The position numbers and the translations under genes are program-made. From positions 60,001 through 92,000 of the IMG/VR virus record IMGVR_UViG_3300035670_013237: 32,000 nucleotides of DNA; one strand, given 5' to 3'. The notes beneath the pieces were generated by a model. That model ran no database searches. It saw nothing but the letters and a program-made list of their open reading frames with translations, and had not been told where the DNA came from. This document shows positions 4,532 through 25,466 of the stretch, piece after piece. Position 1 is the first letter of the stretch, and every line of letters begins with the position of its first letter. This DNA is from a virus.

Positions 4532-4923
4532 AGTTGACTAAACTACACGAAGAATTCATTGAAGCCTCGAAGCGGCCGATGCAGCTCGGTCGCCTGCCAG
4601 TTTCTGCCCGTGAGGCCGAGCTGCCCGTGATTCCCATGAACCGGTGGCGCCTCGAAGGCAGTCCAAGTGCCCTCACGAAGACATTTGGCTTCATGCGAAA
4701 GGGCGACAGGAACAAGATGCTGGAGGCACTCTTTGATCACGAAGATGCGACGCAGCACCATGCAGTCATCACGATCGAAGAAGACACACTGAAGATCTCT
4801 CTCCTGACGAAGAATGTGGAGCAGGTAACGGAGCTCGACAAGGAGTACGCAAAGTTCGCGGACCAAGCGTACAAAGACGTCGTCTATGCGCCGAATCTCG
4901 ATCACCTCAAGGGCTACATGTGA
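4528..4923 (+). CDS. pterin-4a-carbinolamine dehydratase (PCD/DCoH)-like protein
   Basis: GTGA start-stop overlap with the nitrilase gene. W.L......LTKTFGF......ML..........QHHAVITIEEDTLKISLLTKN...VTELD resembles the PCD fold signature (HHP...v.i.l.T...g.t..D). Confidence 0.5.
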   Translation: MKLTKLHEEFIEASKRPMQLGRLPVSAREAELPVIPMNRWRLEGSPSALTKTFGFMRKGDRNKMLEALFDHEDATQHHAVITIEEDTLKISLLTKNVEQVTELDKEYAKFADQAYKDVVYAPNLDHLKGYM

Positions 4924-4929
4924 TATTAT
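4921..4929 (+). promoter_or_regulatory. extended -10 promoter element TGATATTAT, 6 nt upstream of ATG 4936
   Basis: TGnTATTAT at 4921-4929, then acttca, then ATG. No SD present and no clear -35. Confidence 0.35.
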
Positions 4930-4935
4930 ACTTCA

Positions 4936-5325
4936 ATGAGAGCCATTGAAGATAATCCCAGCTTGCTCTTGAGCGATTCACTCCAAGACAATATGTCAGA
5001 TTTTGGAATACCTGCAATACAGGACAGGTTCATTCTGTCCACCCTCAGTGTGCTTGTCAACGAAATTGCCGAAAAGGTTGTGGGCAGCGTCGTCGCATAC
5101 ACGGCAGGTGCCGATGAGTGCCTGTTAGAGACTAAAATATTCGTTGGTGATGCGTTCAGCCTCCTAGAAGTGTGGACTTCTGTGCGGCTGGAGAAATACG
5201 AATTATGTCTTGGGGAAAATATCATTGAATTTTTGGGTCCATTTTCTGTGGCCTCTATCGCCATCAGAGACATTGATACGACACGACAGTTGTGTGTATT
5301 AGAGTTGAAGTTGCGCAAAGTTTGA
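4936..5325 (+). CDS. hypothetical protein
   Basis: 129-aa ORF co-oriented with its neighbours and preceded by an extended -10. The antisense ORF 4926-5318 is S/R/N-rich and less protein-like. Confidence 0.45.
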   Translation: MRAIEDNPSLLLSDSLQDNMSDFGIPAIQDRFILSTLSVLVNEIAEKVVGSVVAYTAGADECLLETKIFVGDAFSLLEVWTSVRLEKYELCLGENIIEFLGPFSVASIAIRDIDTTRQLCVLELKLRKV

Positions 5326-5352
5326 CCTATTTACTTGTCATGGAGCCGCGTC

Positions 5353-5595
5353 ATGCGAAAAAAAATCTACGAAAATAAAGCCTGCAAGTGTGGTGAAGAT
5401 TGTGAGTGTGGTGAGGACTGCCCGTGCCATGATGCCAAAAATGAGAGTGCACAAGTCTTTGCCTTCGATAAGTTCATGGATACGATCGTCCTGAGCGAGT
5501 CGAAGCGCACACATACAGGTGATTCCCCTATTCGCGAGCGGGCGAGGCGCCACCAAGAGCGCCCACTCGGTCGCATTCGATTTGGAGGCAAATAA
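5353..5595 (+). CDS. small Cys-rich (metallothionein-like motif) protein
   Basis: MRKKIYENKACKCGEDCECGEDCPCHD has six Cys plus a His within 17 residues and a tandem CGEDC unit. ATG 5353 is preferred over TTG 5335. Confidence 0.5.
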   Translation: MRKKIYENKACKCGEDCECGEDCPCHDAKNESAQVFAFDKFMDTIVLSESKRTHTGDSPIRERARRHQERPLGRIRFGGK

Positions 5596-6131
5596 TGGAC
5601 TTTCATGCAAAGTCAGGCAGGAGCCTCAGCGGGCTCTTATCCTCAGTGATCAATGAGAGTGTGAGGTCCGCGAAGCGCGCCTTGCGTGAGCAGGACGAAG
5701 AAGACCCAGGCAAAGAAACACAAAAACCTGCTCCACTGCCTGATGAAGACAAGCAGGCACTGCAGACGGGCGACGTGGACGTCGACGACGTGATCGAGAA
5801 GATGAACACGATAAGGTCCGGGCGCTCTTTCAAGGATGAGAGTGTCAAGGCGAATATGGAGCAGTACGTCAACAAGCTGTCGAAGGCTGAGAAGACCGCA
5901 CTGTTCGCGTTCCTCAAGGCAATCTCACAAATCGTCGTCGCGGAGCTACCCTCCACTGACGCAGTCGACCCATCAGAGAAGCCCTCGAACATCAAGATGG
6001 AGAAGGGGAACCAAGTTCAAAAGAGAACCATCAAACCCAATGTCATCAAAATGGAGACTCCAAAAGTGAGCAAGGGGCCTTCTGCTGAGGACACTTCAGC
6101 TCCTGTGCCTATTTCTCCAAAGAAAAAGTGA
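5595..6131 (+). CDS. hypothetical protein (charged, low complexity)
   Basis: TAATG overlap with the upstream stop; 178-aa ORF; no domain recognised. Confidence 0.55.
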   Translation: MDFHAKSGRSLSGLLSSVINESVRSAKRALREQDEEDPGKETQKPAPLPDEDKQALQTGDVDVDDVIEKMNTIRSGRSFKDESVKANMEQYVNKLSKAEKTALFAFLKAISQIVVAELPSTDAVDPSEKPSNIKMEKGNQVQKRTIKPNVIKMETPKVSKGPSAEDTSAPVPISPKKK

Positions 6132-6161
6132 TTGTCCAGGGTGGCGTGTTTCGTATAAAAT
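6132..6161 (+). promoter_or_regulatory. sigma70-like promoter directly abutting ATG 6168
   Basis: TTGTCC (6132-6137), then TATAAA with a 16-nt spacer or TAAAAT with an 18-nt spacer. Only 6-8 nt remain before the ATG and there is no SD. Confidence 0.4.
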
Positions 6162-6167
6162 AAGCGC

Positions 6168-6401
6168 ATGCACAACAGCTTACTTGAAAAACGCATGGTG
6201 AAGCTTCCACGTGGGGGCGAACTCGAAGTTCAACTAACATCAGCAATTAGCGAAAGAATTAGGCAGCACTTCGGCCTCACAGGAGACCAGGCGATAGAAG
6301 ACGATCATGTGAGAATTTTTTTCTGGGGTGTCGTAAATAAAGCTATTGACGGGGCTGAGAGCGAGGTTAGAGATGGAGGAAGGCGAGAAATTAATAGCTG
6401 A
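6168..6401 (+). CDS. hypothetical protein
   Basis: 77-aa ORF immediately downstream of the promoter-like element. Confidence 0.5.
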   Translation: MHNSLLEKRMVKLPRGGELEVQLTSAISERIRQHFGLTGDQAIEDDHVRIFFWGVVNKAIDGAESEVRDGGRREINS

Positions 6402-6651
6402 ATTTGTTAGACTTTTAGCGGAGACGAAGCTTCGTGAGGCTGAGATCTCAGGCGGCCGCCGCGTCGCCTGGGGCTCACCTGAGCACATTGCTGACCTCGA
6501 ATCTCGAATCGCGGACCTGTCCAGCTGGCGCAATAAGCAGCGCCGCGGGTCTGAATCTCGAGCAAACTACGCGCGGGTGGTCTCAAAGCTGAAAGCCGAG
6601 CTTGCGTCTGCCCTTCGATTCGCTGCAAAGGCCGAAGCAAAAGAACGCTGA
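6373..6651 (+). CDS. hypothetical helical protein
   Basis: GAGG SD 6 nt before ATG 6373 (the TTG at 6346 is an alternative). Overlaps the upstream gene by 29 nt. Confidence 0.5.
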   Translation: MEEGEKLIAEFVRLLAETKLREAEISGGRRVAWGSPEHIADLESRIADLSSWRNKQRRGSESRANYARVVSKLKAELASALRFAAKAEAKER

Positions 6652-6666
6652 CAGGCAAAGTTATCA

Positions 6667-6695
6667 TGTCAACTTACACAATAGTGTTGTATGAT
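6667..6695 (+). promoter_or_regulatory. sigma70-like promoter TGTCAA-N17-TATGAT
   Basis: The -10 hexamer (6690-6695) contains the ATG at 6691, which argues that the NUDIX gene really starts at ATG 6706, 10 nt downstream. Confidence 0.4.
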
Positions 6696-6705
6696 AACCC
6701 TCAAT

Positions 6706-7149
6706 ATGAAGAAAAGACATACAAGTAGAAAGAGCACAATATCTTGCGGCACTGTGGTGTACCGTGGGTCGTGCTTCAATGAAGCTCAGATTTTATTGGT
6801 AAAACAATTTGCATCCAATGATGGTTGGGGAATTCCCAAGGGCCACATAAACCCAGAGGAATCCCTGGAAGACTGTGCGATAAGAGAGACCCGAGAAGAA
6901 ACAGGCATTGTCGTCAAGCTGGGCCAGCGCTTACAAAATGCGCGTGCAATTTATAAGACCGAAGAAAAGACTGTCGTGCCCTTCCTCGCGACGCAGGTGT
7001 GCACGGGTTCAATCAATTTTCGAGGAGCTGAATCCGAGGTCGTGGATGCGCAGTGGCACCGGGTCGATTCTCTCCCAAGAATTTATACGTACCAGCAGTC
7101 GATCGTCGAAGAGGCTCTCAGCATCTTGAGAGAGAAATTGGGTGTATGA
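6706..7149 (+). CDS. NUDIX hydrolase
   Basis: Complete Nudix box G-x5-E-x7-R-E-U-x-E-E-x-G-U: GHINPEESLEDCAIRETREETGI. ATG 6691 is an alternative start. Confidence 0.85.
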   Translation: MKKRHTSRKSTISCGTVVYRGSCFNEAQILLVKQFASNDGWGIPKGHINPEESLEDCAIRETREETGIVVKLGQRLQNARAIYKTEEKTVVPFLATQVCTGSINFRGAESEVVDAQWHRVDSLPRIYTYQQSIVEEALSILREKLGV

Positions 7150-7410
7150 ATGGAAGACCTGAGCGAGCGTATTCACGAAGCACTCAGCGAAGTTCATGCC
7201 TATGCGGGCCATGTCGACGACTGGATCACCATAAAGAAGGAAATCCTGAAGTCACTGCCTTCGCAAGAAAGGCGTGCCTTCAGCACACGACACCCAATCA
7301 CGAAGAAGCAGAGCATGAATGAGTTTGAGCGTAAGGTTGCCAACCAGTGGGAGGAATTAACTGGCCGGCCCGTGATATTTAAAGATCATGAAAAAGTCGA
7401 AAGAAGCTGA
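7150..7410 (+). CDS. hypothetical protein
   Basis: ATG directly follows the upstream TGA; 86-aa ORF. Confidence 0.5.
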   Translation: MEDLSERIHEALSEVHAYAGHVDDWITIKKEILKSLPSQERRAFSTRHPITKKQSMNEFERKVANQWEELTGRPVIFKDHEKVERS

Positions 7411-8389
7411 GCTGCTCCGTGAATATGTGAGGTCAGTCCTCAAAGAAGATGATGGAGGGGCGATTGGATACTCTGATCTCGCCATGATGTCAGGACCTGG
7501 AGGCGCAGGCCACGGAATGGAATCACAATTCTGGAGTCTCTTCACAACTTCATTCGGCGATGTCCTGAAGACCGCAGCAGCCGAGTTTAAGAAGCTGGGT
7601 GTTCGCGCAATGACTGCGGTCAAAGTGGGTGTGGAGAGTGTAAAGACCACCGTGCTGCCATGGTTAATGCCCAGGTTCGACAAAATTTTTCAAGAACAAA
7701 AAAGCAAGATTGACTCAATCAATCAAGAATACGCCGATGTGTATAAAAGAACTCAGGATGCGCTGGGGACCAACACAATCGGTGCGCTGTCTCTCATCAT
7801 GTTTCCTGAGGGATACATCACAAAAAAATTCATAGAAAAAGCGCCCCGCGCGGCATATGAGACGCTCAACGCGGCTCTAGGCGGTGAATTGAAGAGTGCT
7901 GTGGGCAAGCTCACTGGGGGTGGCGAAAGCAAAAAAGAATCTCTGGGCAGGCGAGGCCGCCTCCTTAATGAGGATAGCACTTCTGAGCTCTCTGACGAAC
8001 AGTTGCGTGACATGCTCTTAAAAAATTATGATAAACTGATGAGCAAGGCCAAGGAGAGCAAAGCTAAGAAAGAGATTGAGAGTGTTTATAGGTCTGCACT
8101 TGACCAAATCAAGAAAATTGTCGAAGGGTCAAATGAACTCGTGGCGAAGAAAGTCGAAGAGGCTCTAAAAAATCCAGATGATAAGATGAAAGCTGCGCTG
8201 GCGGGAGCGAAGTCTGACAAAGAGAGACAGAGCATCACCAAGTCCTTCCAGGCAATGTCCATCGCAGGCATTAAGAAAGAAACCAAGAAGATCATCGAGG
8301 CTAAAGGCAGCGAGCTCTTCGCACAGCTGCCCAAAGGTCATCCACTTCGACAAGAATTCGACAAAATCCTGCAGAGTCTCGGCGGTTGA
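7388..8389 (+). CDS. hypothetical K/E-rich helical protein, loose leader-family member
   Basis: 333-aa ORF; the N-terminus MKKSKEAELLREYVRSVLKEDDGG resembles the shared leader. TGATATTTA lies 6 nt upstream of the ATG. Confidence 0.65.
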   Translation: MKKSKEAELLREYVRSVLKEDDGGAIGYSDLAMMSGPGGAGHGMESQFWSLFTTSFGDVLKTAAAEFKKLGVRAMTAVKVGVESVKTTVLPWLMPRFDKIFQEQKSKIDSINQEYADVYKRTQDALGTNTIGALSLIMFPEGYITKKFIEKAPRAAYETLNAALGGELKSAVGKLTGGGESKKESLGRRGRLLNEDSTSELSDEQLRDMLLKNYDKLMSKAKESKAKKEIESVYRSALDQIKKIVEGSNELVAKKVEEALKNPDDKMKAALAGAKSDKERQSITKSFQAMSIAGIKKETKKIIEAKGSELFAQLPKGHPLRQEFDKILQSLGG

Positions 8390-8414
8390 ACATTCACAAA
8401 ATTCAAGTTAGTGT
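8386..8414 (+). promoter_or_regulatory. sigma70-like promoter TTGAAC-N17-TAGTGT, 6 nt before ATG 8421
   Basis: Same layout and the same TTGAACATT opening as the promoter upstream of groEL; no SD. Confidence 0.4.
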
Positions 8415-8420
8415 TAGAGC

Positions 8421-8714
8421 ATGGGAAAGCGAAAGAAGACTTCACCGAAGCAGTACAATGTTGCGATCATGCAGCCCAATGAGATCAACCAGCTGCGAGC
8501 TCTTGTCAAGGAGTTTGTGGGTAAGATCGAGGCTGTCGACAATGAGATCGAGATGCTCAAGGAAGACCGAAAAGAAATAATTGAAGAATACACTGAAAAG
8601 CTTGACTATAAGACCCTCCAGGCCGCGTTGAAAGTCGTAAAGATCCAAGAGAGTGTAGAGCACAAGGATACTTTTGATTTGTTCATGGAAGCATTGTCAG
8701 AGTCTACTCCGTGA
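8421..8714 (+). CDS. GapR/DUF2312-like small DNA-binding protein
   Basis: QLRALVKEFVGKIEAVDNEIEMLKEDRKEIIEEYTEKLDYKTLQAALKVVKIQ...FDLFMEAL parallels the GapR pattern QLKSIIDRVERLE.EK..I...IKEVYAEAK..GFDVKVL..VV..RK......ILDLYL.A. Confidence 0.45.
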   Translation: MGKRKKTSPKQYNVAIMQPNEINQLRALVKEFVGKIEAVDNEIEMLKEDRKEIIEEYTEKLDYKTLQAALKVVKIQESVEHKDTFDLFMEALSESTP

Positions 8715-8717
8715 TGT

Positions 8718-9122
8718 ATGATTTCTCGCATGGACAAGCCCAACATCAAACGCCGTAAAACATACCAGCTGCGCCTCACAAGATTTGAAATCCTTCATCT
8801 TCGAGATTTAATGAGTGTCTGTCTCCCACCAGAAGGAAAACAGACACTCAGTGGTGCCCTGGCGACATTGGAAAATAGACAGCTGATCGAATCACTGCTG
8901 TGGAAAAAAGTTTCAGCTGCCTGTGCTGAAGCTCAGCTCCCAACAGGCGAAGATGCGCCCGACTATGTGATTGCTCCCACAGGAATCACACCCTTGGGGG
9001 TGTTCCAGCTGGCTAGCGATCCAAATGGGCCTGAACAAGACGATGACGATGGTGATGAGGAAGATGTTAGTGATGAAGAGAGCGTTCTAGCTTCTCTTTT
9101 TAAGGGAAAAAACAAAAAATGA
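8718..9122 (+). CDS. hypothetical protein with acidic C-terminal tail
   Basis: 134-aa ORF with an EQDDDDGDEEDVSDEE tract. Confidence 0.5.
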   Translation: MISRMDKPNIKRRKTYQLRLTRFEILHLRDLMSVCLPPEGKQTLSGALATLENRQLIESLLWKKVSAACAEAQLPTGEDAPDYVIAPTGITPLGVFQLASDPNGPEQDDDDGDEEDVSDEESVLASLFKGKNKK

Positions 9123-9571
9123 ACCTTCAAGTTGGACAAGTGCTTTATGTCGTGCTGAACAAGCAAACCGCTGTTTATCCGATGCAGGTGGTCGAAGAGA
9201 TCACAAAGAAGACACTGGATGGTGTCGTGGTAGACTATATCATCCGTGGCGGCGGGCCTGATTCCAAGACTCCTTCGATACGCCTAGGTGACATTGACGG
9301 TGAGGTGTTCGAGACATGGGAGCTTGCACGAAAGACCCTCACAGGCCGTGTCGTCGACATGATAGAAAAGAGGATCTCTGCGGCGGTTGCCAAAGCAAAA
9401 GAGTGGTATCCCACAGCATTTAGTGCGGCACAACCCCAACCTCCAACTTTAAAAGCCCGCCGCATGCAGAGTGACGATGAGACACCCCTGCCTGATGAGC
9501 CTGAAGCCCTCGTGGACTTAGGGAATGGTATGAAGGCACGCCTCAAGCTGCCTGAAAACTTCATGGAGTGA
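9119..9571 (+). CDS. hypothetical protein (N-terminal SH3-like VGQVLYVV segment)
   Basis: ATGA overlap with the upstream gene; 150-aa ORF. Confidence 0.55.
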   Translation: MNLQVGQVLYVVLNKQTAVYPMQVVEEITKKTLDGVVVDYIIRGGGPDSKTPSIRLGDIDGEVFETWELARKTLTGRVVDMIEKRISAAVAKAKEWYPTAFSAAQPQPPTLKARRMQSDDETPLPDEPEALVDLGNGMKARLKLPENFME

Positions 9572-9587
9572 AATTTTCGTTGTGCTG

Positions 9588-9616
9588 TGCAAAGTTCTCG
9601 TGCGCTGTGTTATCAT
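9588..9616 (+). promoter_or_regulatory. sigma70-like promoter TGCAAA-N17-(TGt)TATCAT, 6 nt before ATG 9623
   Basis: Exact 17-nt spacer and an extended -10 TG; no SD. It lies inside the GTG-9587 extension of the ORF track, which argues for the ATG 9623 start. Confidence 0.5.
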
Positions 9617-9622
9617 TGCTTC

Positions 9623-10201
9623 ATGGAACTTCAACAGGCACAAGAGATAGCACAGCGAATCAGGTCTCAAGTCGAGCGCTCAGCCTCACGTGTTGAAATC
9701 GCAGGCTCAATTCGACGCTTGAAACCCAACGTCAAAGATGTCGAGATCGTTGCAATAGTCCACGATTACGACACACTCTACCGTGAGCTCCGCCACCATG
9801 GCCGCTTCATCAAACCCAGTGTACCTGATATTATTGACTGGAGCTTCAAGCCCGGCGCGAAGTATGTCCGCATGCTCTTGCACGAAGGTGTAAAGCTTGA
9901 CCTCTTCGTGGCTTCTCCTGACAATTGGGGGCCCTTGTACATGATGCGCACTGGAGGCGCCACTGGTCCAGATGGAAATTCATTCAATGGGTTTGTGCCG
10001 GGAATGTTTGCACGTTGGAAGAAACTATCTGGGGGTGGGATGATGACTGGTTGCATGCCCACCACTAAGGATGGCATACAGCTCGCTTGTCCTGAAGAAC
10101 AGGACTTCTTCAATCTTCTTGGAATGGATTTTGTGCCGCCAGAAGAACGGATCGACCGGAAGGTCATCAAAAAGTACATTCGCGGTCCTGTTCATAATTG
10201 A
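9623..10201 (+). CDS. minimal family-X (pol beta-like) DNA polymerase/nucleotidyltransferase
   Basis: AGSIRRLKPNVKDVEIVA matches the GS.RR....DvD.l motif and VKLDLFV carries the third acidic residue. The C-terminal CPEEQDFFNLLGMDFVPPEER matches the pol X thumb end. Size and layout resemble the 174-aa ASFV Pol X. Confidence 0.7.
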   Translation: MELQQAQEIAQRIRSQVERSASRVEIAGSIRRLKPNVKDVEIVAIVHDYDTLYRELRHHGRFIKPSVPDIIDWSFKPGAKYVRMLLHEGVKLDLFVASPDNWGPLYMMRTGGATGPDGNSFNGFVPGMFARWKKLSGGGMMTGCMPTTKDGIQLACPEEQDFFNLLGMDFVPPEERIDRKVIKKYIRGPVHN

Positions 10202-10233
10202 TACACGATATTTACTCACTGGAGAGTAGGAAC

Positions 10234-10884: not shown

Positions 10885-10927
10885 AATTTTTAGTGATACA
10901 CCCGATAGGATAAGTGTTATTCATAAC

Positions 10928-11203: not shown

Positions 11204-11223
11204 GAGCATCTTAGAATAATTTG

Positions 11224-11257: not shown

Positions 11258-11259
11258 AG

Positions 11260-11288
11260 TGCAAATTTCTGGCAACGTGTGGTAAGGT
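11260..11288 (+). promoter_or_regulatory. sigma70-like promoter TGCAAA-N17-(TGg)TAAGGT, 7 nt before ATG 11296
   Basis: Sits directly after the terminator; extended -10 TG present; no SD. Confidence 0.45.
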
Positions 11289-11295
11289 TCGAAAC

Positions 11296-12120
11296 ATGGC
11301 AATACTCTGTATCGATGCAATGAATTTTCTTCACAGGGCTCGGTCAGGCTGGCAGCTTGGTCCTGCGCCTGTCATCTTCAACTTCATGCGCAACTTTCGC
11401 GCAGTGGTTGAGCAGTTCAAGCCCAGCCGGGTATACTTCGTCCTAGAAGGCCGTGCACAACAGCGCCGTGACCTGCTACCTGAGTACAAGGCGAATAGGT
11501 CTGTTGAGGCTGGCTCTAAAGAAGCTGGAGAGCTCGAAAAGTTCTTTGCGCAAGTTAAAGAAATCGTCGGTCTCCTCGAGACCACATTCCCGGTGTCCGT
11601 GGTTCGCCATCCCCGCCATGAATGTGATGACACGATCTACAACTTGGTGAAACGTGGGACCCCTGCGGCGGAGTGGATCGTGGTGTCCAACGACTCAGAT
11701 TTCACGCAGCTCCTCAATGAGTTTTCCCATGTGAAGCTCTGGAACCCCATGAAGAAGGGGTATGTGCCTAAGCCTGACTATGATTACGTTACTTGGAAGT
11801 CGCTGCGCGGGGACGGTTCGGACAATATCCCAGGCATTCCCGGAATCGGTGACCGGACAGCTGAGAATATTGTGGAAGATCCTGATAGGCTGGCGGAGCT
11901 GCTCTCTGACCCAGAGAAGGGTGCCATCTTTGCGAGGAATTACGAGCTCATCAAGTTCATTGAGTGGGACGACAGCACAGCAGCTGAGATGACATGCTCA
12001 CACCCTCAAAAGAATTGGGAGCCCCTGCGCGAGTCTTTTGAGAAGTATTCCTTCAAGTCCCTCTTGAAGGAAGACGCTTGGAAGAAATTTGTGGACACCT
12101 TTGAATCCCTGTGGGGGTAA
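11296..12120 (+). CDS. 5'-3' exonuclease / flap endonuclease (PIN-like + H3TH)
   Basis: ILCIDAMNFLHRA, EYKANR, ECDDTIY, VVSNDSDFTQLL and WKSLRGDGSDNIPGIPGIGDRTAENI are the standard 5'-nuclease motifs. Confidence 0.85.
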   Translation: MAILCIDAMNFLHRARSGWQLGPAPVIFNFMRNFRAVVEQFKPSRVYFVLEGRAQQRRDLLPEYKANRSVEAGSKEAGELEKFFAQVKEIVGLLETTFPVSVVRHPRHECDDTIYNLVKRGTPAAEWIVVSNDSDFTQLLNEFSHVKLWNPMKKGYVPKPDYDYVTWKSLRGDGSDNIPGIPGIGDRTAENIVEDPDRLAELLSDPEKGAIFARNYELIKFIEWDDSTAAEMTCSHPQKNWEPLRESFEKYSFKSLLKEDAWKKFVDTFESLWG

Positions 12121-12136
12121 GCAGATAATTATCTGC

Positions 12137-12574: not shown

Positions 12575-12769
12575 GTGTCGAGCGATTTGCTGCGCCAGTA
12601 TGTCTTAGAAGTGCTGACAGGTTTCAAGGCCCTTAGCGCGGTTGGGCCTGATCGTGCGCAGGGCAACCTACGCCAGGGAGATTTCACGCTCTCTCCAAAG
12701 AACAAAGGCGTCCTGGATGACCTCGAGGACGCAGAATCTTGGGAAGAAGATGAGCCCATGAGGGTGTAA
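12575..12769 (+). CDS. small hypothetical protein, loose leader-family member
   Basis: GTG start directly after the upstream TAA; N-terminus SSDLLRQYVLEVL. Confidence 0.4.
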   Translation: MSSDLLRQYVLEVLTGFKALSAVGPDRAQGNLRQGDFTLSPKNKGVLDDLEDAESWEEDEPMRV

Positions 12770-12793
12770 ATTTGCCCGCTGTTGAATTAAATT
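12765..12793 (+). promoter_or_regulatory. sigma70-like promoter TGTAAA-N17-TAAATT, 6 nt before ATG 12800
   Basis: Exact 17-nt spacer; no SD; start context GCATG as at the other sites. Confidence 0.45.
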
Positions 12794-12799
12794 CGTTGC

Positions 12800-13030
12800 A
12801 TGGCACTATCAAAAGATAATGTGATAATCATCAGGGCTGCAGCGAAGGAGGCAGGTGACCACCTGAAGGGCAGGCTCCCTCCTTGCAAATTCCTGAAAGA
12901 GCGCAACTCGTATGCCCACATCTGGGAGCGCCTCAAGGCCCGCCTTGGTAGATCATACAAGGATTGTGATGATGCACAGGTAGGCGAGATTTTGCGCCTC
13001 ATAGAGTGGTACCGCAATAACCCATGCTGA
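12800..13030 (+). CDS. hypothetical protein
   Basis: 76-aa ORF downstream of the promoter; the antisense ORF 12787-13017 was judged a shadow. Confidence 0.5.
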   Translation: MALSKDNVIIIRAAAKEAGDHLKGRLPPCKFLKERNSYAHIWERLKARLGRSYKDCDDAQVGEILRLIEWYRNNPC

Positions 13031-14265: not shown

Positions 14266-15831
14266 TTATTGGTTTTCGTACCAAGACACTGACACTGCGG
14301 CGTTATCAAGATCATTAGACACGCGCTGCGCTGTGAAGGTGAGAGTCTCGCCTGTTGCCACGAAGAAATTTTCGTCCTGGAGCTTCAGGGTCAACGACTC
14401 ATTCGCAGCGATGATTAGAGACTTTAACAGTTGCGTCTTGCCAGAGATTGAAGAAATTGATGTGGCTGCTGTGTCATACGAGGCTATTGATCTTGTTGAG
14501 TCCACATGCTGAAAATTGACTGGACCACCAAGTCCCATATTTTTGTAGATGAAGATCTTGAGGAGCTTGCCTGCAGCTGAGCTGCCTGAGTCATTCGCGA
14601 CTGATAGATTAAATGGGTCAATCTCACCGTAGCAGCTCTGGCCGTTGAAGACAGTGTTCGCACGAATCGTCAAGATCGGTACCTCTGTTGCTGAAATCGC
14701 CGACTTGACGGCTGAGATTGAGAATGCAGTCCCGATGTTTTTAGTGATCAGGCCCTCGTTGAAGGTGCTCGCCGAAGCGCCCTTGACTGTCACGCTGCTT
14801 GCTAACGACCCACTGTTGTAGGCACCCCACATTGCATACATGCCTGGATTTTGCAGGACCACAGAAGTGCTTGTATTCGCGCGCTCTATCATGTGGCACG
14901 ATACTAAGAGCCCAGTTTGCGGATTTTCTACGCTAAATGTTGGGTTGCCAAACCCAAGGTACTGGTAACCCACGCCATAGATGTTTCCCTTGGTTTTATC
15001 GATCGTGAAGCCAGACGGGCCACTCCCGTCGAGGCTGTCGATATTCCACGATGACTGTGTGATAAAAGTTTGTGTCGGGAGCGTGCCCGCCTGGACCGTC
15101 GCCGTCGTGGCGATCGGGGATGCACCATTTAGGATCGAAAATGTCCCGCCCCGAGGACCAGGGGTCATTGAGGTAAAATACACGGTCCCATCGATGGACT
15201 CAGCGTGCCAGCCTCCGCCCACCTGCGTGTAGTCTGCTTGCGAAATCTGATATGATGTCTGGTTCGCAGAGCCCCCGCCGTTGATCGTGACAGATTTTGT
15301 GCTGCCCTCAAGTGTGACAGTGAGGGTCGCAGCTCCTGCGGGCGGTGAGGTGATCGAGAATGATCTGATTTCTTTTCTGGACGCTTCGCGGTGGAGGATT
15401 CCAAAAGAATTTGAGCCGCTCACTGCGAAGAACATTCCGCACTCATCATTTCCGACGCCCGCGAGCTGCATAGTGTCATCGGCACCTGCTGTAAAAGCCG
15501 CCGTGAGGCGACAGATGCCACCTTGGCCCGCTCTGTACTTGTTACTTCTGGTCAGGCGAATCTGCGAGAAACTGTGATTTTCGGCGCCAGAAGTGCATGA
15601 CATCACTGCGCTTGTTGTGCTGACACCCGCACCCGTGCCGTGTGAGCCTGTGCTCCATAAAATGTTGTTTGTTCCGTAGACAAAAGTTGCCTGCCCTGTG
15701 GGCGTCATCTCCGACACGAGTGCGGTGCCGAATGGACCTTGTGCATTTGCGTTTGTTAGCGAAATGCTCGCTGTCGAGTAGCTCACATTAACATCGACAC
15801 TTTTCTTGGCGAGGGTGGTATAGCCTGACAT
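14266..15831 (-). CDS. beta-rich S/T/G/N-rich protein, probable virion structural protein (capsid or fibre type not resolved)
   Basis: 521-aa ORF with composition typical of jelly-roll or fibre proteins; contains WNIDSLDGSGPSGFTIDKTKGNIYGVGYQYLGFGNPTF. No enzymatic motif. Confidence 0.4.
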   Translation of the reverse strand: MSGYTTLAKKSVDVNVSYSTASISLTNANAQGPFGTALVSEMTPTGQATFVYGTNNILWSTGSHGTGAGVSTTSAVMSCTSGAENHSFSQIRLTRSNKYRAGQGGICRLTAAFTAGADDTMQLAGVGNDECGMFFAVSGSNSFGILHREASRKEIRSFSITSPPAGAATLTVTLEGSTKSVTINGGGSANQTSYQISQADYTQVGGGWHAESIDGTVYFTSMTPGPRGGTFSILNGASPIATTATVQAGTLPTQTFITQSSWNIDSLDGSGPSGFTIDKTKGNIYGVGYQYLGFGNPTFSVENPQTGLLVSCHMIERANTSTSVVLQNPGMYAMWGAYNSGSLASSVTVKGASASTFNEGLITKNIGTAFSISAVKSAISATEVPILTIRANTVFNGQSCYGEIDPFNLSVANDSGSSAAGKLLKIFIYKNMGLGGPVNFQHVDSTRSIASYDTAATSISSISGKTQLLKSLIIAANESLTLKLQDENFFVATGETLTFTAQRVSNDLDNAAVSVSWYENQ

Positions 15832-18854: not shown

Positions 18855-19096
18855 TCAAAGCCCGACCACACTGTGGTAGATTCAAAGTCATAGGATATAC
18901 CGTTGCTCCATAAGATGGTGACATCCCAAAGTGGTGTGCCCTCAGAGATGAGCATGCCCTCAAATTCATGGGGAGAGTCGCTGCGCCTGAGACAGACTAC
19001 GAGCCCAAGGTCATCGTCGAAATACTTCGAAAAGACGATCATGCCGGGCACCAACTCCTCTGTCGTTACATCTCTCAAGCGCCTATTCACCGCCAT
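18824..19096 (-). CDS. small protein of the PGD/SH3-like paralog family
   Basis: ELVPGMIVFSKYFDDDLGLVVCLRR...VTILWSNG. Confidence 0.55.
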   Translation of the reverse strand: MAVNRRLRDVTTEELVPGMIVFSKYFDDDLGLVVCLRRSDSPHEFEGMLISEGTPLWDVTILWSNGISYDFESTTVWSGFEWRIPWKKNK

Positions 19097-19098
19097 GA

Positions 19099-19139
19099 TT
19101 GAACTTATCTTGAACTTTTGAGAAGTTCACATTTATGAT
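19099..19139 (+). promoter_or_regulatory. divergent-region promoter TTGAAC-N18-TATGAT overlapped by an operator-like TTGAACTT repeat set
   Basis: TTGAACTT occurs at 19099-19106 and 19110-19117, with the inverted copy AAGTTCA at 19123-19129. The -10 is at 19134-19139, 11 nt before ATG 19151. Confidence 0.45.
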
Positions 19140-19150
19140 ACCCCGGTACC

Positions 19151-19432
19151 ATGAAGAACAAAAACACGATTCTCATAGAGATCGCGATACAGTCGGCTGG
19201 GAGAGTGTTCTCAGGGTTATACTGGGGACGATCAACTCCGCTTGAGAGCATACCTTACCTCATTGAGGAAGAGTGTGATCGACAGATCACATCGGTATTC
19301 AAGTCTGAAGATAAGATCTCAGAAAGAGACGTTCACATGTGCAAAATGTATGCCGTCCAGTATTATAACGAATACATGTCTAGAATTATGACCCATAGAA
19401 TGAATCAAATCGAGAGTGAACAAGATGCCTGA
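19151..19432 (+). CDS. hypothetical protein
   Basis: 93-aa ORF downstream of the promoter. Confidence 0.5.
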   Translation: MKNKNTILIEIAIQSAGRVFSGLYWGRSTPLESIPYLIEEECDRQITSVFKSEDKISERDVHMCKMYAVQYYNEYMSRIMTHRMNQIESEQDA

Positions 19433-20252: not shown

Positions 20253-20266
20253 ATTACGAGGTTTGA

Positions 20267-20452: not shown

Positions 20453-20652
20453 CCGTGAAACCAGGTGACATGTTGTTTCTCAATCGTCAATATCGCGTTG
20501 ATCCTGACAATCCTCAGTTTTTTATTTTGTGTATTTCTGTGGTTGAGGACGAAGTTTGCGTCTTGCAAACATGGTTTAAAGATTCAACCACCAACTTGCA
20601 ATCGACCACTCAAGGGGCTCTTAGCCATTTCTATCACAAAGCTATTACATGA
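20449..20652 (+). CDS. small protein of the PGD/SH3-like paralog family
   Basis: VKPGDMLFLNRQYRV...FFILCISVV. Start is TTG 20449 or GTG 20455, overlapping the upstream stop. Confidence 0.5.
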   Translation: MTVKPGDMLFLNRQYRVDPDNPQFFILCISVVEDEVCVLQTWFKDSTTNLQSTTQGALSHFYHKAIT

Positions 20653-20936
20653 AGCACCCAATTACAGGAGCACTCATTGCGTTCAATTGTCCCATGAGTC
20701 TCTTGTCACCCCATGACATGGAAACTATCGAGCGTTCAGGATATGAAGATGAGTTTCAGTTGACTGAACCCAGTTTCATTTGCAGCGAAAAAGACGTAGG
20801 GTTGCTGATTGACAAAAAAGTTGCACGATCACTGTACAGTGCAAGTCAATCAATATATTACAACATACTGTTTGCCCGAGGATCAGGGTGGATTAATTCT
20901 CAATGGGTTCGTCATCCTTATTGTAAAGTCTTATGA
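20649..20936 (+). CDS. small hypothetical protein (shares a C-terminal GW.N..W motif with the next gene)
   Basis: ATGA overlap; C-terminus SGWINSQWVRH. Confidence 0.5.
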   Translation: MKHPITGALIAFNCPMSLLSPHDMETIERSGYEDEFQLTEPSFICSEKDVGLLIDKKVARSLYSASQSIYYNILFARGSGWINSQWVRHPYCKVL

Positions 20937-21268
20937 AGAAATCGTTCAACGTTGGTGACATGGTCTGCATAGATCAATCTACTGACATTTTAACGAGCGC
21001 CCTCCTGGGCTCTGACAGTTTGGTCCTATTAGATGATGGTCAGGTCACCATACTCCAGGGTGGTGGAAGTATCCACGTGCCCATGAAGGATACCTCACCT
21101 AGCATGTACAAATCTGACATCGCTGTGATCATCCAGTGCATTTCTTTCATTAAAGAAGTCAAGACGGTGAATAAAAGAATCCCCTCGTACGAAGTGGGAT
21201 TCAGTAAACTCCTGACCCCACAGGGGATCGGGTGGTGCAACAATAGTTGGTTAAGATTGGTCGACTGA
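20933..21268 (+). CDS. small protein of the PGD/SH3-like family with a C-terminal GW.N..W motif
   Basis: ATGA overlap; FNVGDMVCID near the N-terminus; C-terminus IGWCNNSWLRLV. Confidence 0.55.
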   Translation: MKKSFNVGDMVCIDQSTDILTSALLGSDSLVLLDDGQVTILQGGGSIHVPMKDTSPSMYKSDIAVIIQCISFIKEVKTVNKRIPSYEVGFSKLLTPQGIGWCNNSWLRLVD

Positions 21269-21269
21269 G

Positions 21270-21298
21270 TGCAAATTTTTCGTTGATTATGTTATCAT
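21270..21298 (+). promoter_or_regulatory. sigma70-like promoter TGCAAA-N17-(TGt)TATCAT upstream of uvdE
   Basis: Same hexamers as the pol X promoter. ATG 21312 follows 13 nt later and a GAGGTG SD lies in between. Confidence 0.5.
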
Positions 21299-21311
21299 GA
21301 CCATGAGGTGA

Positions 21312-22247
21312 ATGATGCTAGGCGTTTGTTGTCATTGGCTAGAAGAACGTGTGAAGCCCAAGGGCAAAGTCGAAGTTGTGAATGCGATGGACGAGCGTGT
21401 CCTGCAGCTCGGCCGCTACAGAGACGGGAAGTACTCGCATGAGCAGATCATGTCGACGTACGTCAATAACGCGACGAATCTCGCGAACATGTTACCCAAG
21501 ATCGCGGGGCACGGTGTCAGGCTGTTTCGCATCTCTTCCGCGCTATTTCCTCTCGCGGACCAGGTCGATCGATCCTTGTGGGACAACGACACCGTGCGGG
21601 GAATCCTCCGTGGTGCTGGCGACTTCATCAGGCAAAATGGTATGCGTGTCTCCACACACCCAGGCCAGTTCTGCGTTCTATCATCTGACACTGACAAGGT
21701 AATTGAGAACGCTATCAACGAGCTCAACCTACATGCATGGCTCTTCGACACCATGGGTCTTGACCACTCCCCTCAATATGCCATCAACATCCACGGGGGC
21801 AAGTCAGACCGTGCATCCCGGCTCATCGAGCAGATCAAGTCCCTGCCTGACAGCACACGCAAGCGTCTCACTCTCGAGAACGACGAGACAGCATACTCTC
21901 TCCTCGATCTCCTCGAAGTCCACAAAGAAACCGGGACACCGCTTGTGTGGGACTCCCACCACCACACCTTCAATGACGGTGACCTGACGATGGAAGAAGC
22001 TATGGGACTCGCTTCCGCCACATGGCCTGATGGCATCAAACCCTTGCAACACATCAGCAACACTGAACCCCACTTTATGTCGGGCGGCTCATTCACCGAG
22101 CGCCGCAAACACTCCGACCTAATTCACTACGTGCCAGAGCCCCAGCTCTCAGCACTTCGGGATGGAACGGTCGACTGTGAAGTCGAGGCGAAGCTGAAGA
22201 ATGTATCAGTCTTCAAGATGGCGAAAGATTTCGAAATTCCGATTTGA
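21312..22247 (+). CDS. uvdE: UV-damage endonuclease (UvdE family)
   Basis: STHPGQFCVLSS, INIHGG, LTLENDE and VWDSHHH are the TIM-barrel metal-site motifs of UVDE. Confidence 0.85.
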   Translation: MMLGVCCHWLEERVKPKGKVEVVNAMDERVLQLGRYRDGKYSHEQIMSTYVNNATNLANMLPKIAGHGVRLFRISSALFPLADQVDRSLWDNDTVRGILRGAGDFIRQNGMRVSTHPGQFCVLSSDTDKVIENAINELNLHAWLFDTMGLDHSPQYAINIHGGKSDRASRLIEQIKSLPDSTRKRLTLENDETAYSLLDLLEVHKETGTPLVWDSHHHTFNDGDLTMEEAMGLASATWPDGIKPLQHISNTEPHFMSGGSFTERRKHSDLIHYVPEPQLSALRDGTVDCEVEAKLKNVSVFKMAKDFEIPI

Positions 22248-22257
22248 AGGATTAGAT

Positions 22258-22503
22258 ATGGAGGGGGTTGACATGGTGGCAGTCACTGAATTTCAGGTCC
22301 ACATTTCCCAACAGGAAGAGTTCGAGAATTGTGCCTCTGCAGTGTTCGACTACACAGAGCAGCGCCTGATGCGCTATGTGAAGCTCATCAGCGACCGTCA
22401 GCAGAAGCAGGCACTCAATGATCTCCTCGAGAAATATAGGAAGGGCCGGGTCGCAATCTGCTGGAAGGGTGGTAATCCCTCTTGGCTTGATTTGGACATT
22501 TGA
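22258..22503 (+). CDS. hypothetical protein
   Basis: GAAGGA SD before ATG 22258; 81 aa; not GroES-like. Confidence 0.5.
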   Translation: MEGVDMVAVTEFQVHISQQEEFENCASAVFDYTEQRLMRYVKLISDRQQKQALNDLLEKYRKGRVAICWKGGNPSWLDLDI

Positions 22504-22508
22504 ATGAA

Positions 22509-22537
22509 TTGAACATTTTCACGGATCATTGTATGTT
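22509..22537 (+). promoter_or_regulatory. sigma70-like promoter TTGAAC-N17-TATGTT, 6 nt before the groEL ATG
   Basis: Exact 17-nt spacer; no SD between the -10 and ATG 22544. Confidence 0.5.
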
Positions 22538-22543
22538 TTGTGC

Positions 22544-24142
22544 ATGAGCGAGAGCACAACACAAGTCCTATTCAAAAATGACGCCCGCCGCCAATTGTTC
22601 GTGGGCATGGAGATCGCTGCTGAGGCGGTGTCCACGACCCTTGGCCCAAAGGGTAAGACTGTCCTGATCCAACGTAAGGGTGAAGCGCCTATTGTCACGA
22701 AGGATGGCGTGACTGTGAGCAAGTCAATAAGGTTGCGCGATCCTGTGCAACGCATGGGTGCCGAGCTCATCCGCGAGGCTGCTGCACAGACAAATGAGAT
22801 CGCAGGAGATGGCACGACGACTGCGACTGTCCTCACGCACGCCATGGTGAAAGAGGGACTGAAGCTCCTCGAGGCCGGATATCCCGCGAAAGAACTATGC
22901 AAGGGCATTGAATTAGCGAGGGCCCGTGTGGATGAGAACCTTGCTGCTCTTGCGAAGCGCCTCACAACTGCTGAAGAGATTGCACAAGTGGGCACGATTT
23001 CGGCTAACGGTGACCGTAAGATCGGTGACCTCATTGCAGCAGCAATGGACAAGGTGGGCCGCGATGGCATCATCACGGTGGAAGATGCAAAGGGCATGGC
23101 GACTACCCTCGAGGTCGTCGAGGGCATGCAATTCGATCGCGGTTATCTTTCTCCTTACTTCGTCACCAACCAAGACCGCATGAGCGTCAACTATAATGAC
23201 GCTAGGGTCCTTCTGACTGATAAGAAGCTAAATAACCTAAGAGAATTAGTGCCAATTCTTGAGAAGGTGATGCAAGGCCGCCAGCCCCTCATCATCATCG
23301 CAGAGGACGTCGAAGGTGAAGCTCTACAGGGCCTCGTGCTCAACAGAGTCAATGCGAACCTGCCCGTCGTGGCGGTCAAGGCGCCTGGATATGGACAGCA
23401 TCGGCATGACCTACTCACAGACATCTCAACTCTGACAGGCGCGAAGCTCGTGTCAGCCTCAACAGGACTCAAGTTGGAATCTCTCACCTTGCAGGATCTT
23501 GGCACCCTGAAGCGTGTGGTGGTCGATGCTAAATCGACGACTCTCGTGGGAACAGGGTCAACAAAGTCAAGCGTTGAGGCTCATGTGGAGAACCTCCGCA
23601 CACAGCTTCAAGATGTGACCCTCACGGTCGACGACGTCACGAAGCTGAAGGTGCGAATTGCGAAACTGGCGAGCGGTGTCGCGGTCATTCGCGTGGGCGG
23701 GGCGACAGAGGTCGAGATGATCGAACGCAAGTATAGAATTGAAGATGCCCTCAATGCTACTCGTGCTGCTGCGGAGGAGGGCATCGTGCCCGGCGGCGGC
23801 ATGGCACTTGCTACAATCACGAGCACAATAGATCTTTCTGCTGACTTGCCGCAAGAAGAAGCCATGGGAGCTTCAATCATCACACGAGCATGCCTTGCAC
23901 CGCTGAAGAGGATCTCGCAGAACGCAGGAGTAACACCAGAGGTAATCCTCAGTGAACTCCAGCGAAACCCAGGTAAGGGCTACAACGCCGCGACAGGCGA
24001 GTATGTCGATCTCATCGCGGCCGGTGTCATCGATCCTGTCAAGGTGACACGGACGGCCTTGAAAAACGCTGCCTCAGTTGCCACGACATTCTTGTCTCTT
24101 GATGCAGTCGTCTTTGATGAGGAGGGACAGGCGGGTGAGTAA
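22544..24142 (+). CDS. groEL: GroEL (Cpn60) chaperonin
   Basis: Near-canonical LGPKGKTVLI, PIVTKDGVTVSK, AGDGTTTATVLTHA and VAVKAPGYG motifs along the full length. ATG 22544 gives an MSESTTQVLF N-terminus. The protein ends ...EEGQAGE without a GGM tail. Confidence 0.95.
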   Translation: MSESTTQVLFKNDARRQLFVGMEIAAEAVSTTLGPKGKTVLIQRKGEAPIVTKDGVTVSKSIRLRDPVQRMGAELIREAAAQTNEIAGDGTTTATVLTHAMVKEGLKLLEAGYPAKELCKGIELARARVDENLAALAKRLTTAEEIAQVGTISANGDRKIGDLIAAAMDKVGRDGIITVEDAKGMATTLEVVEGMQFDRGYLSPYFVTNQDRMSVNYNDARVLLTDKKLNNLRELVPILEKVMQGRQPLIIIAEDVEGEALQGLVLNRVNANLPVVAVKAPGYGQHRHDLLTDISTLTGAKLVSASTGLKLESLTLQDLGTLKRVVVDAKSTTLVGTGSTKSSVEAHVENLRTQLQDVTLTVDDVTKLKVRIAKLASGVAVIRVGGATEVEMIERKYRIEDALNATRAAAEEGIVPGGGMALATITSTIDLSADLPQEEAMGASIITRACLAPLKRISQNAGVTPEVILSELQRNPGKGYNAATGEYVDLIAAGVIDPVKVTRTALKNAASVATTFLSLDAVVFDEEGQAGE

Positions 24143-24521
24143 GCTTAAAGAGCAAGAGCTCACGGACCAGATCCAACTAATCAACTGGGGTGGAACGTCA
24201 CCTGCTGAGCGTCGCACGTTTACAGAAGCTCTAGCACAGTTAGAGATCGCGGCTCTTGTTGACATGCAGGCTGCGACTGCGCGTCGCAGCCGGTTATCAT
24301 CTCTCGTTGTGGCTCTCGTGGGCGTTCTTTTAGCATCTCTCCTGGGAGCTGCACCTCCCACGCTGATCATGGTGGCTCTCGGTACTCAGCTTCTGATGTT
24401 CGTCGTGAGTCAAGTCTTGGAAAACGCATCTAAGAAGCTACTCGCAGCGGCTGAGGCACGAGCTCTTGAGAGGGTTGAATTTCTGGCAAAGAGACACCCG
24501 CTCCCACCAGCCCAAGACTAA
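24135..24521 (+). CDS. two-TM membrane protein
   Basis: GTG 24135 overlaps the groEL stop by 8 nt (ATG 24117 is an alternative). TM segments LSSLVVALVGVLLASLLGA and LIMVALGTQLLMFVVSQVL. Confidence 0.5.
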   Translation: MSKLKEQELTDQIQLINWGGTSPAERRTFTEALAQLEIAALVDMQAATARRSRLSSLVVALVGVLLASLLGAAPPTLIMVALGTQLLMFVVSQVLENASKKLLAAAEARALERVEFLAKRHPLPPAQD

Positions 24522-24527
24522 TATTTA

Positions 24528-24779
24528 ATGAACATGGATGATTATTATACCCCAGGCCAGCTCGTCACACGGCGGTATCGCTGGAGTATAAGTTCTCATG
24601 TACTGGGAATTGTTATTCACACACCTGTAGATGATGAAAACCTGCTCACTGTGCTCTGGGCGCAGAATGATACATGTCAAGGCAACCCCACAATGGCAGA
24701 CTGCCACCGCAGCAACCTGCTGCCAGTCGATGAAGATTCATCCGCACAGCTAGGATCGCGATGTCAGATCACTACATAG
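24528..24779 (+). CDS. small protein of the PGD/SH3-like paralog family
   Basis: YTPGQLVTRRYRWSISSHVLGIVIH...LLTVLWAQ. Confidence 0.5.
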   Translation: MNMDDYYTPGQLVTRRYRWSISSHVLGIVIHTPVDDENLLTVLWAQNDTCQGNPTMADCHRSNLLPVDEDSSAQLGSRCQITT

Positions 24780-24985
24780 GAGAATTTGTGCTCTATAGGC
24801 CTGCTCGGGTGGGTCGTGGGGAGAGTGTCGCAATGATCTTATCGATCAAGAATTCTAATTCACCTCGCTGGTCCAGTGAGATTGATTATCAGCACGTGTA
24901 CTATGTGCTCACTAATTCTGGTAATGTAGAAGGTCCGCTATTCTCGTCGGAGCTGTTGAGTGTTTCAAAAGTACATGCCGGGTGA
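24761..24985 (+). CDS. small protein of the PGD/SH3-like paralog family
   Basis: YIGEFVLYRPARVGRGESVAMILSI...YYVLTNSG; compare YYVLTRSK at 20267. Confidence 0.5.
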   Translation: MSDHYIGEFVLYRPARVGRGESVAMILSIKNSNSPRWSSEIDYQHVYYVLTNSGNVEGPLFSSELLSVSKVHAG

Positions 24986-25199
24986 CCTTGTCTACTTAAC
25001 CTGGAGCACCTGCGGCACAATACATGATCCTGCAAATCCGCTTCAAGCGCATTATCTCTGGCTCAATAAGGGCCAATACGGAATGATCGTGGGAGGTCTT
25101 GGGCACCCGTCTAAGGAAACGCGGGGTGAAATTGAAATGCTGACTTTCATTGAGGGTAAATTGATCTGGGTCGAGTGCGACTGCCTGGAGCTCTTATGA
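24975..25199 (+). CDS. small protein of the PGD/SH3-like paralog family
   Basis: ATG 24975 gives MPGDLVYLTWSTCG and overlaps the upstream stop by 11 nt. Confidence 0.55.
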   Translation: MPGDLVYLTWSTCGTIHDPANPLQAHYLWLNKGQYGMIVGGLGHPSKETRGEIEMLTFIEGKLIWVECDCLELL

Positions 25200-25409
25200 C
25201 ATGTCAGCGATGATCTCTTGAATGAGCTCTCTCAGCGCGGCATGATCCACGCTCTCAGCCTCGATCGCCGCTATCTGCCCTTGGGCACCCTTCCGTGATG
25301 TGTGGCAGTTGCGGTGTTTCTTGCCCTTCTTGTCTTTGTACGATAGGACATAGCTGCCCCTGTCGCCGTCTGATTGCTTACACTTTTGTTTGCGAATTGT
25401 GTATGGCAT
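25194..25409 (-). CDS. small basic hypothetical protein
   Basis: 71-aa ORF on the opposite strand. Lys-rich N-terminal half with CK...CH; the C-terminus ALRELIQEIIADMS resembles the shared leader motif. Confidence 0.5.
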   Translation of the reverse strand: MPYTIRKQKCKQSDGDRGSYVLSYKDKKGKKHRNCHTSRKGAQGQIAAIEAESVDHAALRELIQEIIADMS

Positions 25410-25430
25410 GCTTTTACCCTGTAGATGTTG

Positions 25431-25459
25431 TGCAGTATAAATTATGTTCTAGGCATAAT
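25431..25459 (+). promoter_or_regulatory. sigma70-like promoter TGCAGT-N17-CATAAT, 7 nt before ATG 25467
   Basis: Lies in the divergent intergenic region; no SD. Confidence 0.4.
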
Positions 25460-25466
25460 TAGTTCC

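Follow-up and report, generated by a model that had tools for sequence, protein, structure and literature searches.

The 32,000-bp stretch of DNA analyzed here (the window) comprises bases 60001–92000 of the IMG/VR record IMGVR_UViG_3300035670_013237 (hereafter G000), a 160,384-bp fragment of an uncultivated giant phage that is ~44% complete and has 52% G+C. It encodes GroEL, a FEN-type 5'-3' exonuclease, a pol X-like protein, UvdE, a NUDIX hydrolase, a GapR-like protein, and IF-1, and several of these genes share an unusual arrangement at their starts: a putative promoter whose −10 hexamer ends only 6 or 7 nt before the ATG. The first-pass annotation, made from the sequence of the window, had listed eight such sites and three related ones with a longer gap (6667, 19110, and 21270) and predicted that the genes behind them are read from leaderless mRNAs. 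Coordinates, hexamers, and spacers were accurate at all of these sites, and we found two more in the window, at 19096 (minus strand) and 1412. They are given below in window coordinates, with the position of the ATG in parentheses, protein lengths in amino acids (aa), Pfam families, and scores of a position weight matrix (PWM) in bits.

1376–1414 (+), candidate site before a 102-aa open reading frame (ORF): GTGAAC-N17-TACAAT-ctgatca-ATG(1412).
4921–4938 (+), 129-aa protein: TGaTATTAT (extended −10 only)-acttca-ATG(4936).
6132–6170 (+), 77-aa protein: TTGTCC-N18-TAAAAT-aagcgc-ATG(6168).
6667–6708 (+), NUDIX hydrolase (PF00293): TGTCAA-N17-TATGAT-N10-ATG(6706); 10.4 bits; predicted leader of 2–4 nt.
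8386–8423 (+), GapR-like protein, 97 aa: TTGAAC-N17-TAGTGT-tagagc-ATG(8421).
9587–9625 (+), pol X-like gene, 192 aa (PF14791): gTGCAAA-N17-(tgt)TATCAT-tgcttc-ATG(9623); 20.5 bits; no Shine-Dalgarno (SD) sequence.
11259–11298 (+), FEN/5'-3' exonuclease, 274 aa (PF02739): gTGCAAA-N17-(tgg)TAAGGT-tcgaaac-ATG(11296); 21.4 bits.
12764–12802 (+), 76-aa protein: gTGTAAA-N17-TAAATT-cgttgc-ATG(12800); 17.0 bits.
19094–19130 (−), 90-aa protein, divergent partner of the site at 19110: GTGAAC-N17-TAAGTT-caatc-ATG(19096).
19110–19153 (+), 93-aa protein: TTGAAC-N18-TATGAT-N11-ATG(19151); predicted leader of ~5 nt.
21269–21314 (+), uvdE (PF03851): gTGCAAA-N17-(tgt)TATCAT-gacc-ATG-AGG-TGA-ATG(21312); 20.8 bits; short leader plus SD.
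22509–22546 (+), GroEL, 532 aa: TTGAAC-N17-TATGTT-ttgtgc-ATG(22544).
25431–25469 (+), 78-aa ORF: gTGCAGT-N17-CATAAT-tagttcc-ATG(25467); weak −10.

What kind of promoter is this, and how common is it in the genome? The layout is of the sigma-70 type, with two boxes, a spacer of 17 ± 1 nt, and a −10 of the form TAnnnT, and an extended −10 (TGn at the end of the spacer) is frequent. The −35 box of the main class is GTGYAAA and does not resemble the TTGACA read by region 4.2 of housekeeping sigma factors; TTGAAC is found only in a minority (sites 8386, 22509, and 19110). A strict pattern defined without any ATG or ORF condition (GTG[CT]AAA-N17-TAnnnT) has 26 copies in G000 and 16 in a related contig, IMGVR_UViG_3300037010_002844 (G002; 309,433 bp, 91% complete), and the spacer is exactly N17 in 26/30 and 16/17 strict-pattern matches, respectively. 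The 30-nt PWM, trained on promoter copies outside the window and applied with a cutoff of at least 10 bits, matched G000 77 times vs. 3.6 times in shuffled sequence, and G002 59 times. This excess runs counter to the refuting condition that had been named with the prediction, a motif as rare before starts as in shuffled or coding sequence. A scan of the window for the generic sigma-70 consensus showed no significant enrichment (28 vs. 17.2 ± 4.4); it takes the phage-specific −35 box, or a test anchored on the ATG, to bring out the signal. Such an anchor recovers the −35 de novo: the sites in G002 with TAnnnT exactly 6 nt before the first ATG reveal GTGnA (T in 35/50, G in 34/50, A in 38/50), a G before the −10, and a C at −1 in 39/50. 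Sigma-70 holoenzymes classically prefer to start at C(−1)A(+1), 7 nt past the −10. The GCATG context that had been noted at several sites thus generalizes in its C at −1 and not in the rest.

How precisely is the ATG placed relative to the −10? We measured the distance from the end of an upstream TAnnnT to the first ATG of each ORF of at least 60 aa, a test that does not depend on gene calls. Five related viral contigs were obtained through their FEN gene, and G001, G002, G003, and G005 served as replicates beside G000. The number of ORFs with a 6-nt spacing and the mean of the other spacings were:

G000: 19 at 6 nt, mean of others 6.3.
G001: 15 at 6 nt, mean of others 3.7.
G002: 50 at 6 nt, mean of others 6.5.
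G003: 17 at 6 nt, mean of others 5.3.
G005: 13 at 6 nt, mean of others 4.2.

The spike is one position wide in all five contigs and is specific to ATG, with none seen for GTG, TTG, or CTG in any of the five. Likewise, promoters found with the strict pattern have an ATG at 6–7 nt in 10/26 cases in G000 and 10/16 in G002, where ~3% (about one in G000) would be expected; for PWM matches the numbers are 19/77 (16 at 6 nt and 3 at 7 nt) and 27/59 (25 at 6 nt). The signal recurs in the 128 kb of G000 outside the window as well as in the four other contigs. After background subtraction, the class comprises ~10–13 genes in G000 and ~44 in G002, or roughly 6–13% of genes, and accounts for ~40% of the recognizable promoters in G002. 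None of the 6–7 nt spacers (tagagc, tgcttc, tcgaaac, cgttgc, ttgtgc, aagcgc) holds an SD core, for which there is no physical room. The first 40 nt of the leaderless-type ORFs have less structure than control windows, an observation that is supportive and not specific.

Are these ATGs genuine translation starts? Homologs indicate that they are for the five conserved proteins compared. In an alignment with solved GroELs, residue 7 of the phage GroEL pairs with their residue 4; the reading frame is closed by a stop nine codons before the ATG, and starting at the next Met would remove conserved sequence. Residue 4 of FEN aligns to position 3 of the PF02739 profile, and residue 9 of an outer-membrane barrel protein (G000 139110) to position 2 of its family. 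In G002, PNKP (AAA_33) aligns from residue 4 to position 1, with the P-loop at residues 9–16, and an NAD-epimerase from residue 3 to position 1, with MRVLITGAAGFIGS at its N terminus.

The arrangement is also conserved between relatives. Among 15 orthologue pairs of G000 and G002 (29–75% protein identity), 12 of the G002 members carry TAnnnT 5–7 nt from the ATG, and in these 12 pairs, which include GroEL, ligase, and FEN, the bases of the hexamer and the spacer differ. Two further pairs retain CATnnT-N7, and one (window 12800) loses the layout. The G002 counterparts of genes in the window are as follows.

129-aa protein (4936): TAAGAT-tgggag-ATG vs. TATTAT-acttca in G000.
77-aa protein (6168): TAGGGT-acacgc-ATG vs. 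TAAAAT-aagcgc in G000.
NUDIX hydrolase (6706): TAGGAT-N7-ATG.
GapR-like protein (8421): CTGAAC-N17-TATCTT-N7-ATG.
FEN (11296): GTGAAA-N17-TAGAGT-N5-ATG.
GroEL (22544): GTGTACA-N17-TAGAAT-N6-ATG.
78-aa ORF (25467): CATAGT-N7-ATG, with the overlap with IF-1 kept.

Does the spacing test distinguish phages with leaderless transcripts from those without? Applied to the Thermus thermophilus phage phiYS40, whose middle and late mRNAs are reported as leaderless (Sevostyanova et al. 2007, through PMC3594737; cited in PMC12340547), it gave a one-position spike (22 vs. ~5.5 at 6 nt). In the first 50 kb of phiKZ, for which differential RNA sequencing found no leaderless transcript (PMC8244752), the profile was flat. 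The test therefore matches published transcript mapping in both cases. In bacteria, moreover, TAnnnT 6–8 nt before the start is accepted as the mark of a leaderless gene (PMC3160421, PMC6028130, PMC12340547).

Genome-wide, the same promoter also precedes genes with a leader. PeSL-like cassettes of promoter, hairpin, and SD share with the leaderless class the −35 box, the spacer, the position of the −10, and a C-A at the predicted +1; they differ in having TACAAC as the −10 and a GC hairpin a few bases past +1, followed by a GGAG SD before the ATG, whereas in the leaderless class the −10 is TAnnnT and the ATG itself stands at +1. Because the C-A occupies the same position in the leadered cassettes, it provides an internal calibration of +1. 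Two initiation modes thus coexist, as had been proposed. The further proposal, that genes inside operons carry clear GGAG-type SDs, is borne out in part: an SD core of at least 4 nt precedes ~58% of G000 genes, a rough fraction because it relies on our own crude Markov gene caller (which covers 66–74% of the genome), and many genes in the window have a weak SD or none.

Taken together, we consider it likely, on the strength of these sequence patterns, that the sites are real phage promoters that start transcription at the A of the start codon, so that the downstream genes yield leaderless mRNAs (5'-pppAUG...). The prediction of the first-pass annotation is supported by the sharp, ATG-only spacing with C(−1)A(+1), the absence of an SD, the N termini of homologs, conservation among orthologues and across the clade, and the positive and negative results for phiYS40 and phiKZ. 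We infer the exact 5' end, the sigma factor, and the route of translation as follows. The promoter would consist of a −35 (GTGYAAA, or the sigma-70-like TTGAAC/GTGAAC), a 17-nt spacer often ending in TGn, TAnnnT, and a 6-nt discriminator usually ending in C, and RNA polymerase with a sigma-70-family factor would start 7 nt past the −10. That factor is probably the phage's own, which has sigma regions 2 and 3, with region 4 not detected in Pfam searches; a host sigma may act at some sites. In ~40% of promoters, the predicted +1 A would coincide with the ATG of a real gene, whose mRNA should be translated by the known leaderless route, in which a 70S ribosome or a 30S-IF2-fMet-tRNA complex binds the 5'-terminal AUG. 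Elsewhere, the same promoter would produce mRNAs whose leader holds a 5' hairpin and a GGAG SD, so that one promoter type may feed two modes of initiation.

Several observations weigh against this interpretation. Three of the listed sites are weak: the one at 6132 has an 18-nt spacer and a poor −35; the one at 4921 keeps the −10, the 6-nt gap, and the ATG that had been described and has no −35 and only 12 nt between it and the upstream stop; and the one at 25431 shows the layout with CATAAT as its −10, the ATG at 25467 opening the 78-aa ORF and not the IF-1 gene (25630–25896). The TTGAAC class taken alone is only modestly enriched (3–5 cases vs. 1–1.5 expected). In G001, FEN is preceded by an AAGGAG SD in place of the leaderless layout, which indicates that the layout is evolutionarily labile and that the two modes interconvert. 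Finally, seven leadered cassettes (G000 115–132 kb) have an "ATG" at +1 that is followed by a hairpin, an SD, and a second ATG. We rejected these as true starts and left them uncounted; they mean that an ATG at +1 is by itself no proof of a leaderless start.

Could the promoters be real and many of the transcripts not strictly leaderless? Transcription might start 1–5 nt upstream of the ATG or inside it, or the genes might be translated mainly from longer read-through mRNAs of upstream genes, independently of an SD or by reinitiation. RNA polymerase is known to vary its choice of start by 1–2 nt, and three sites have 10–13 nt after the −10. At 6667, the site exists as described, and the start it serves is the ATG at 6706, the first ATG of the ORF (6691) falling within TATGAT, which gives a leader of 2–4 nt; at 21270 a leader of ~7–9 nt carries a GAGGTGA SD; the third is 19110. 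The promoters, moreover, sit in gaps of 12–50 nt right behind upstream genes, and convincing terminators were not found in most of these gaps; a weak hairpin with a T-run lies just 5' of the FEN promoter (11259–11298). However, a start untied to the codon does not require a one-position, ATG-specific spike, C(−1)A(+1) points to the first base of the ATG as the preferred start, and phiYS40, with its mapped leaderless mRNAs, has the same profile. We therefore regard this explanation as unlikely. A more radical proposal is that TAnnnT is not a −10 at all and instead an A/U-rich translation signal on leadered mRNAs, such as an S1-dependent, SD-independent ribosome-binding site. Some huge phages are known to make little use of SDs (PMC7162821), and among our crudely called genes, 26/186 (~14%) in G000 and 73/335 (~22%) in G002 lack both an SD and a −10-like box, which means that some initiation must be SD-independent. 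Yet the hexamer has a −35 at exactly 17 nt and matches the promoter of leadered, SD-bearing genes. An enhancer of translation needs neither fixed spacing nor an invariant T-A....T or C at −1, and it should also serve the GTG and TTG starts, which show no spike. This proposal is very improbable.

The layout might also be a product of chance or ascertainment, with hexamers picked by eye near ATGs or in-frame TAA and TAG codons brought in by ORF-based selection. In its favor are the lack of significant enrichment in the generic scan of the window and slightly raised counts at the in-frame spacings of 3 and 9 nt in G000 (11 and 9 vs. ~5). Against it, when promoters are defined with no reference to ORFs or ATGs, 38–62% of them nevertheless carry an ATG at 6–7 nt, and the result was replicated outside the window and in four other contigs. 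Of the 39 cases in G002 with TAG at −12, 27 have a T at −7, while TGA at −12 is not enriched, which rules out an in-frame stop-codon artefact as the source of the spike. We judge this explanation to be already refuted, with next to no chance of being correct.

How does the proposed class compare with known leaderless systems? Bacterial "TA-led" genes (Zheng 2011, PMC3160421), GeneMarkS-2 group C (Lomsadze 2018, PMC6028130), and the Deinococcus "-10-motif" genes (Zhong 2025, PMC12340547) likewise have TAnnnT ~12 nt upstream and no SD, and they follow the same dual model of leaderless first genes and SD-led internal ones. These are cellular genomes that use a housekeeping sigma, often with an unrecognizable −35, whereas G000 is viral and has a strong, phage-specific −35 at a fixed 17 nt. 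The lambda cI transcript from P_RM (PMC9031893; also referenced in PMC12340547) begins with the A of AUG, and its translation proceeds without an SD, as we propose for the G000 sites; in lambda, it is a single regulatory gene, whereas in the G000 clade, it is a genome-wide class of at least 13 genes in the 160 kb of G000 and at least 44 in G002. Another phage parallel is phiYS40, a large phage (152 kb) that is reported to make many leaderless mRNAs from promoters with the −10 beside the ATG and that has SD-led genes as well; what the G000 clade shares with it is the sequence signature. The two lineages are unrelated, and the host phylum of phiYS40 is itself rich in leaderless genes. Unlike phiYS40, the G000 phage has the distinctive GTGYAAA −35 and encodes both an IF-1 and a sigma of its own (regions 2 and 3 only). 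For phiYS40, an action through host IF2/IF3 levels is reported. Leaderless expression is thus already known from phiYS40, Deinococcus, and actinobacteria, its mechanism is in textbooks, and the surprise for specialists is moderate. New are the lineage of uncultivated huge phages, the phage-specific −35, and the sharing of one promoter type by leaderless and hairpin-plus-SD transcripts; a literature search on leaderless genes in jumbo phages found no description of such a class. Megablast found no DNA-level match to 6 kb of G000 among phage records, and tblastn found no close cultured relative of the phage sigma.

In practical terms, a standard gene finder that expects an SD will put such starts in the wrong place, or overlook them, in huge phages of this group; with a promoter-plus-ATG rule, the start codons and the limits of transcription units could be fixed exactly for dozens of genes. 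One promoter type feeding two initiation routes could serve temporal or host-shutoff control, as has been proposed for phiYS40. The phage sigma, its promoter, and 5'-AUG mRNAs, with or without the phage IF-1, also form a system in which to ask whether viral initiation factors favor leaderless mRNAs.

Is the IF-1 of the phage connected with leaderless initiation, a causal link that the first-pass annotation had called speculation? The gene (89 aa, window 25630–25896; PF01176, E = 3.8e-23) is conserved in G002, G003, and G004, and it has no SD. Its first ~74–100 nt also belong, in another frame, to the acidic C-terminal tail of the leaderless-type 78-aa ORF. This overlap (in the window, within 25467–25896; also G002 L023, G004 L024, and G003 L025; here and below, L-numbered coordinates are positions within pieces of the contigs) is conserved in three lineages and suggests dual coding, a frameshift fusion, or some unusual kind of coupling. 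IF1 genes are known from huge phages (PMC7162821), and IF1 and IF2 stimulate leaderless translation in vitro according to a review (PMC9031893). Among 13 IF-1-bearing viral contigs, a hint of the spike appeared only in the two closest, with none in the distant low-GC contigs, a comparison of low power because it used segments of 10–20 kb and one that lends the idea no support beyond the clade. A link between IF-1 and leaderless initiation is plausible speculation.

An extension of this idea is a dedicated program of leaderless translation, in which the phage sigma would start a large share of units (~40% of recognizable G002 promoters) at AUG and phage-encoded translation parts would bias ribosomes toward 5'-AUG mRNAs and away from the SD-led mRNAs of the host. 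Candidates for such parts would be IF-1, with its basic N-terminal extension and its place in a conserved leaderless unit, a bL12-like protein that is of the leaderless type in G002, and ~50 tRNAs including tRNA-Met. We regard such a program as rather unlikely.

Other features of these genomes touch on translation. The bL12-like gene of G002 (L021 18048–18539, minus strand) encodes a ribosomal L7/L12 C-terminal domain (PF00542, E = 1.1e-10) behind the leaderless-type promoter GTGAATA-N17-TATTAT-N6-ATG. The ~50 tRNAs of G002 include two tRNA(CTA) and one tRNA(TTA) suppressors, and its transfer-messenger RNA is of the ordinary one-piece type, with the tag ANDNGVAPLALAA; the positions for these RNAs are L018 8801–8949, L021 8775–8850, and L015 2403–2774. 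At ~5460–5650 of G002 (L007), two strong promoters diverge, and the +1 ATG of each opens only a 5-codon ORF (ATGGCAAGCGCCCCTTGA and ATGAGCAACGCCTTCTAG); leaderless mini-ORFs are one possible reading, and assembly errors or recoded stops are others. Behind the uvdE promoter (window 21299–21317), the predicted 5' end reads AUG-AGG-UGA-AUG-AUG, a two-codon mini-ORF that doubles as the SD (AGGUGA) for the start of uvdE.

In the region G000 148197–150089 (L047), the truncated sigma gene (regions 2 and 3 only; 149277–150089) follows three genes behind a phage-type promoter whose first gene (148233, 114 aa) is leaderless, so a promoter of the sigma's own type may drive the unit in which it sits. A PurA-like adenylosuccinate synthetase (418 aa; G000 100926–102182, minus strand; L045 1926–3182) has its best cellular matches in metagenome-assembled genomes of Chloroflexota (50–53% identity), followed by Spirochaetota (~48%), a weak hint at the origin of the gene or at the host. 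Lastly, only 18 nt separate the starts of two divergent genes in the window, of 521 and 132 aa, at 15831 (minus strand) and 15850 (plus strand). Neither has a recognizable promoter or SD; their promoters must sit inside each other's coding sequence.

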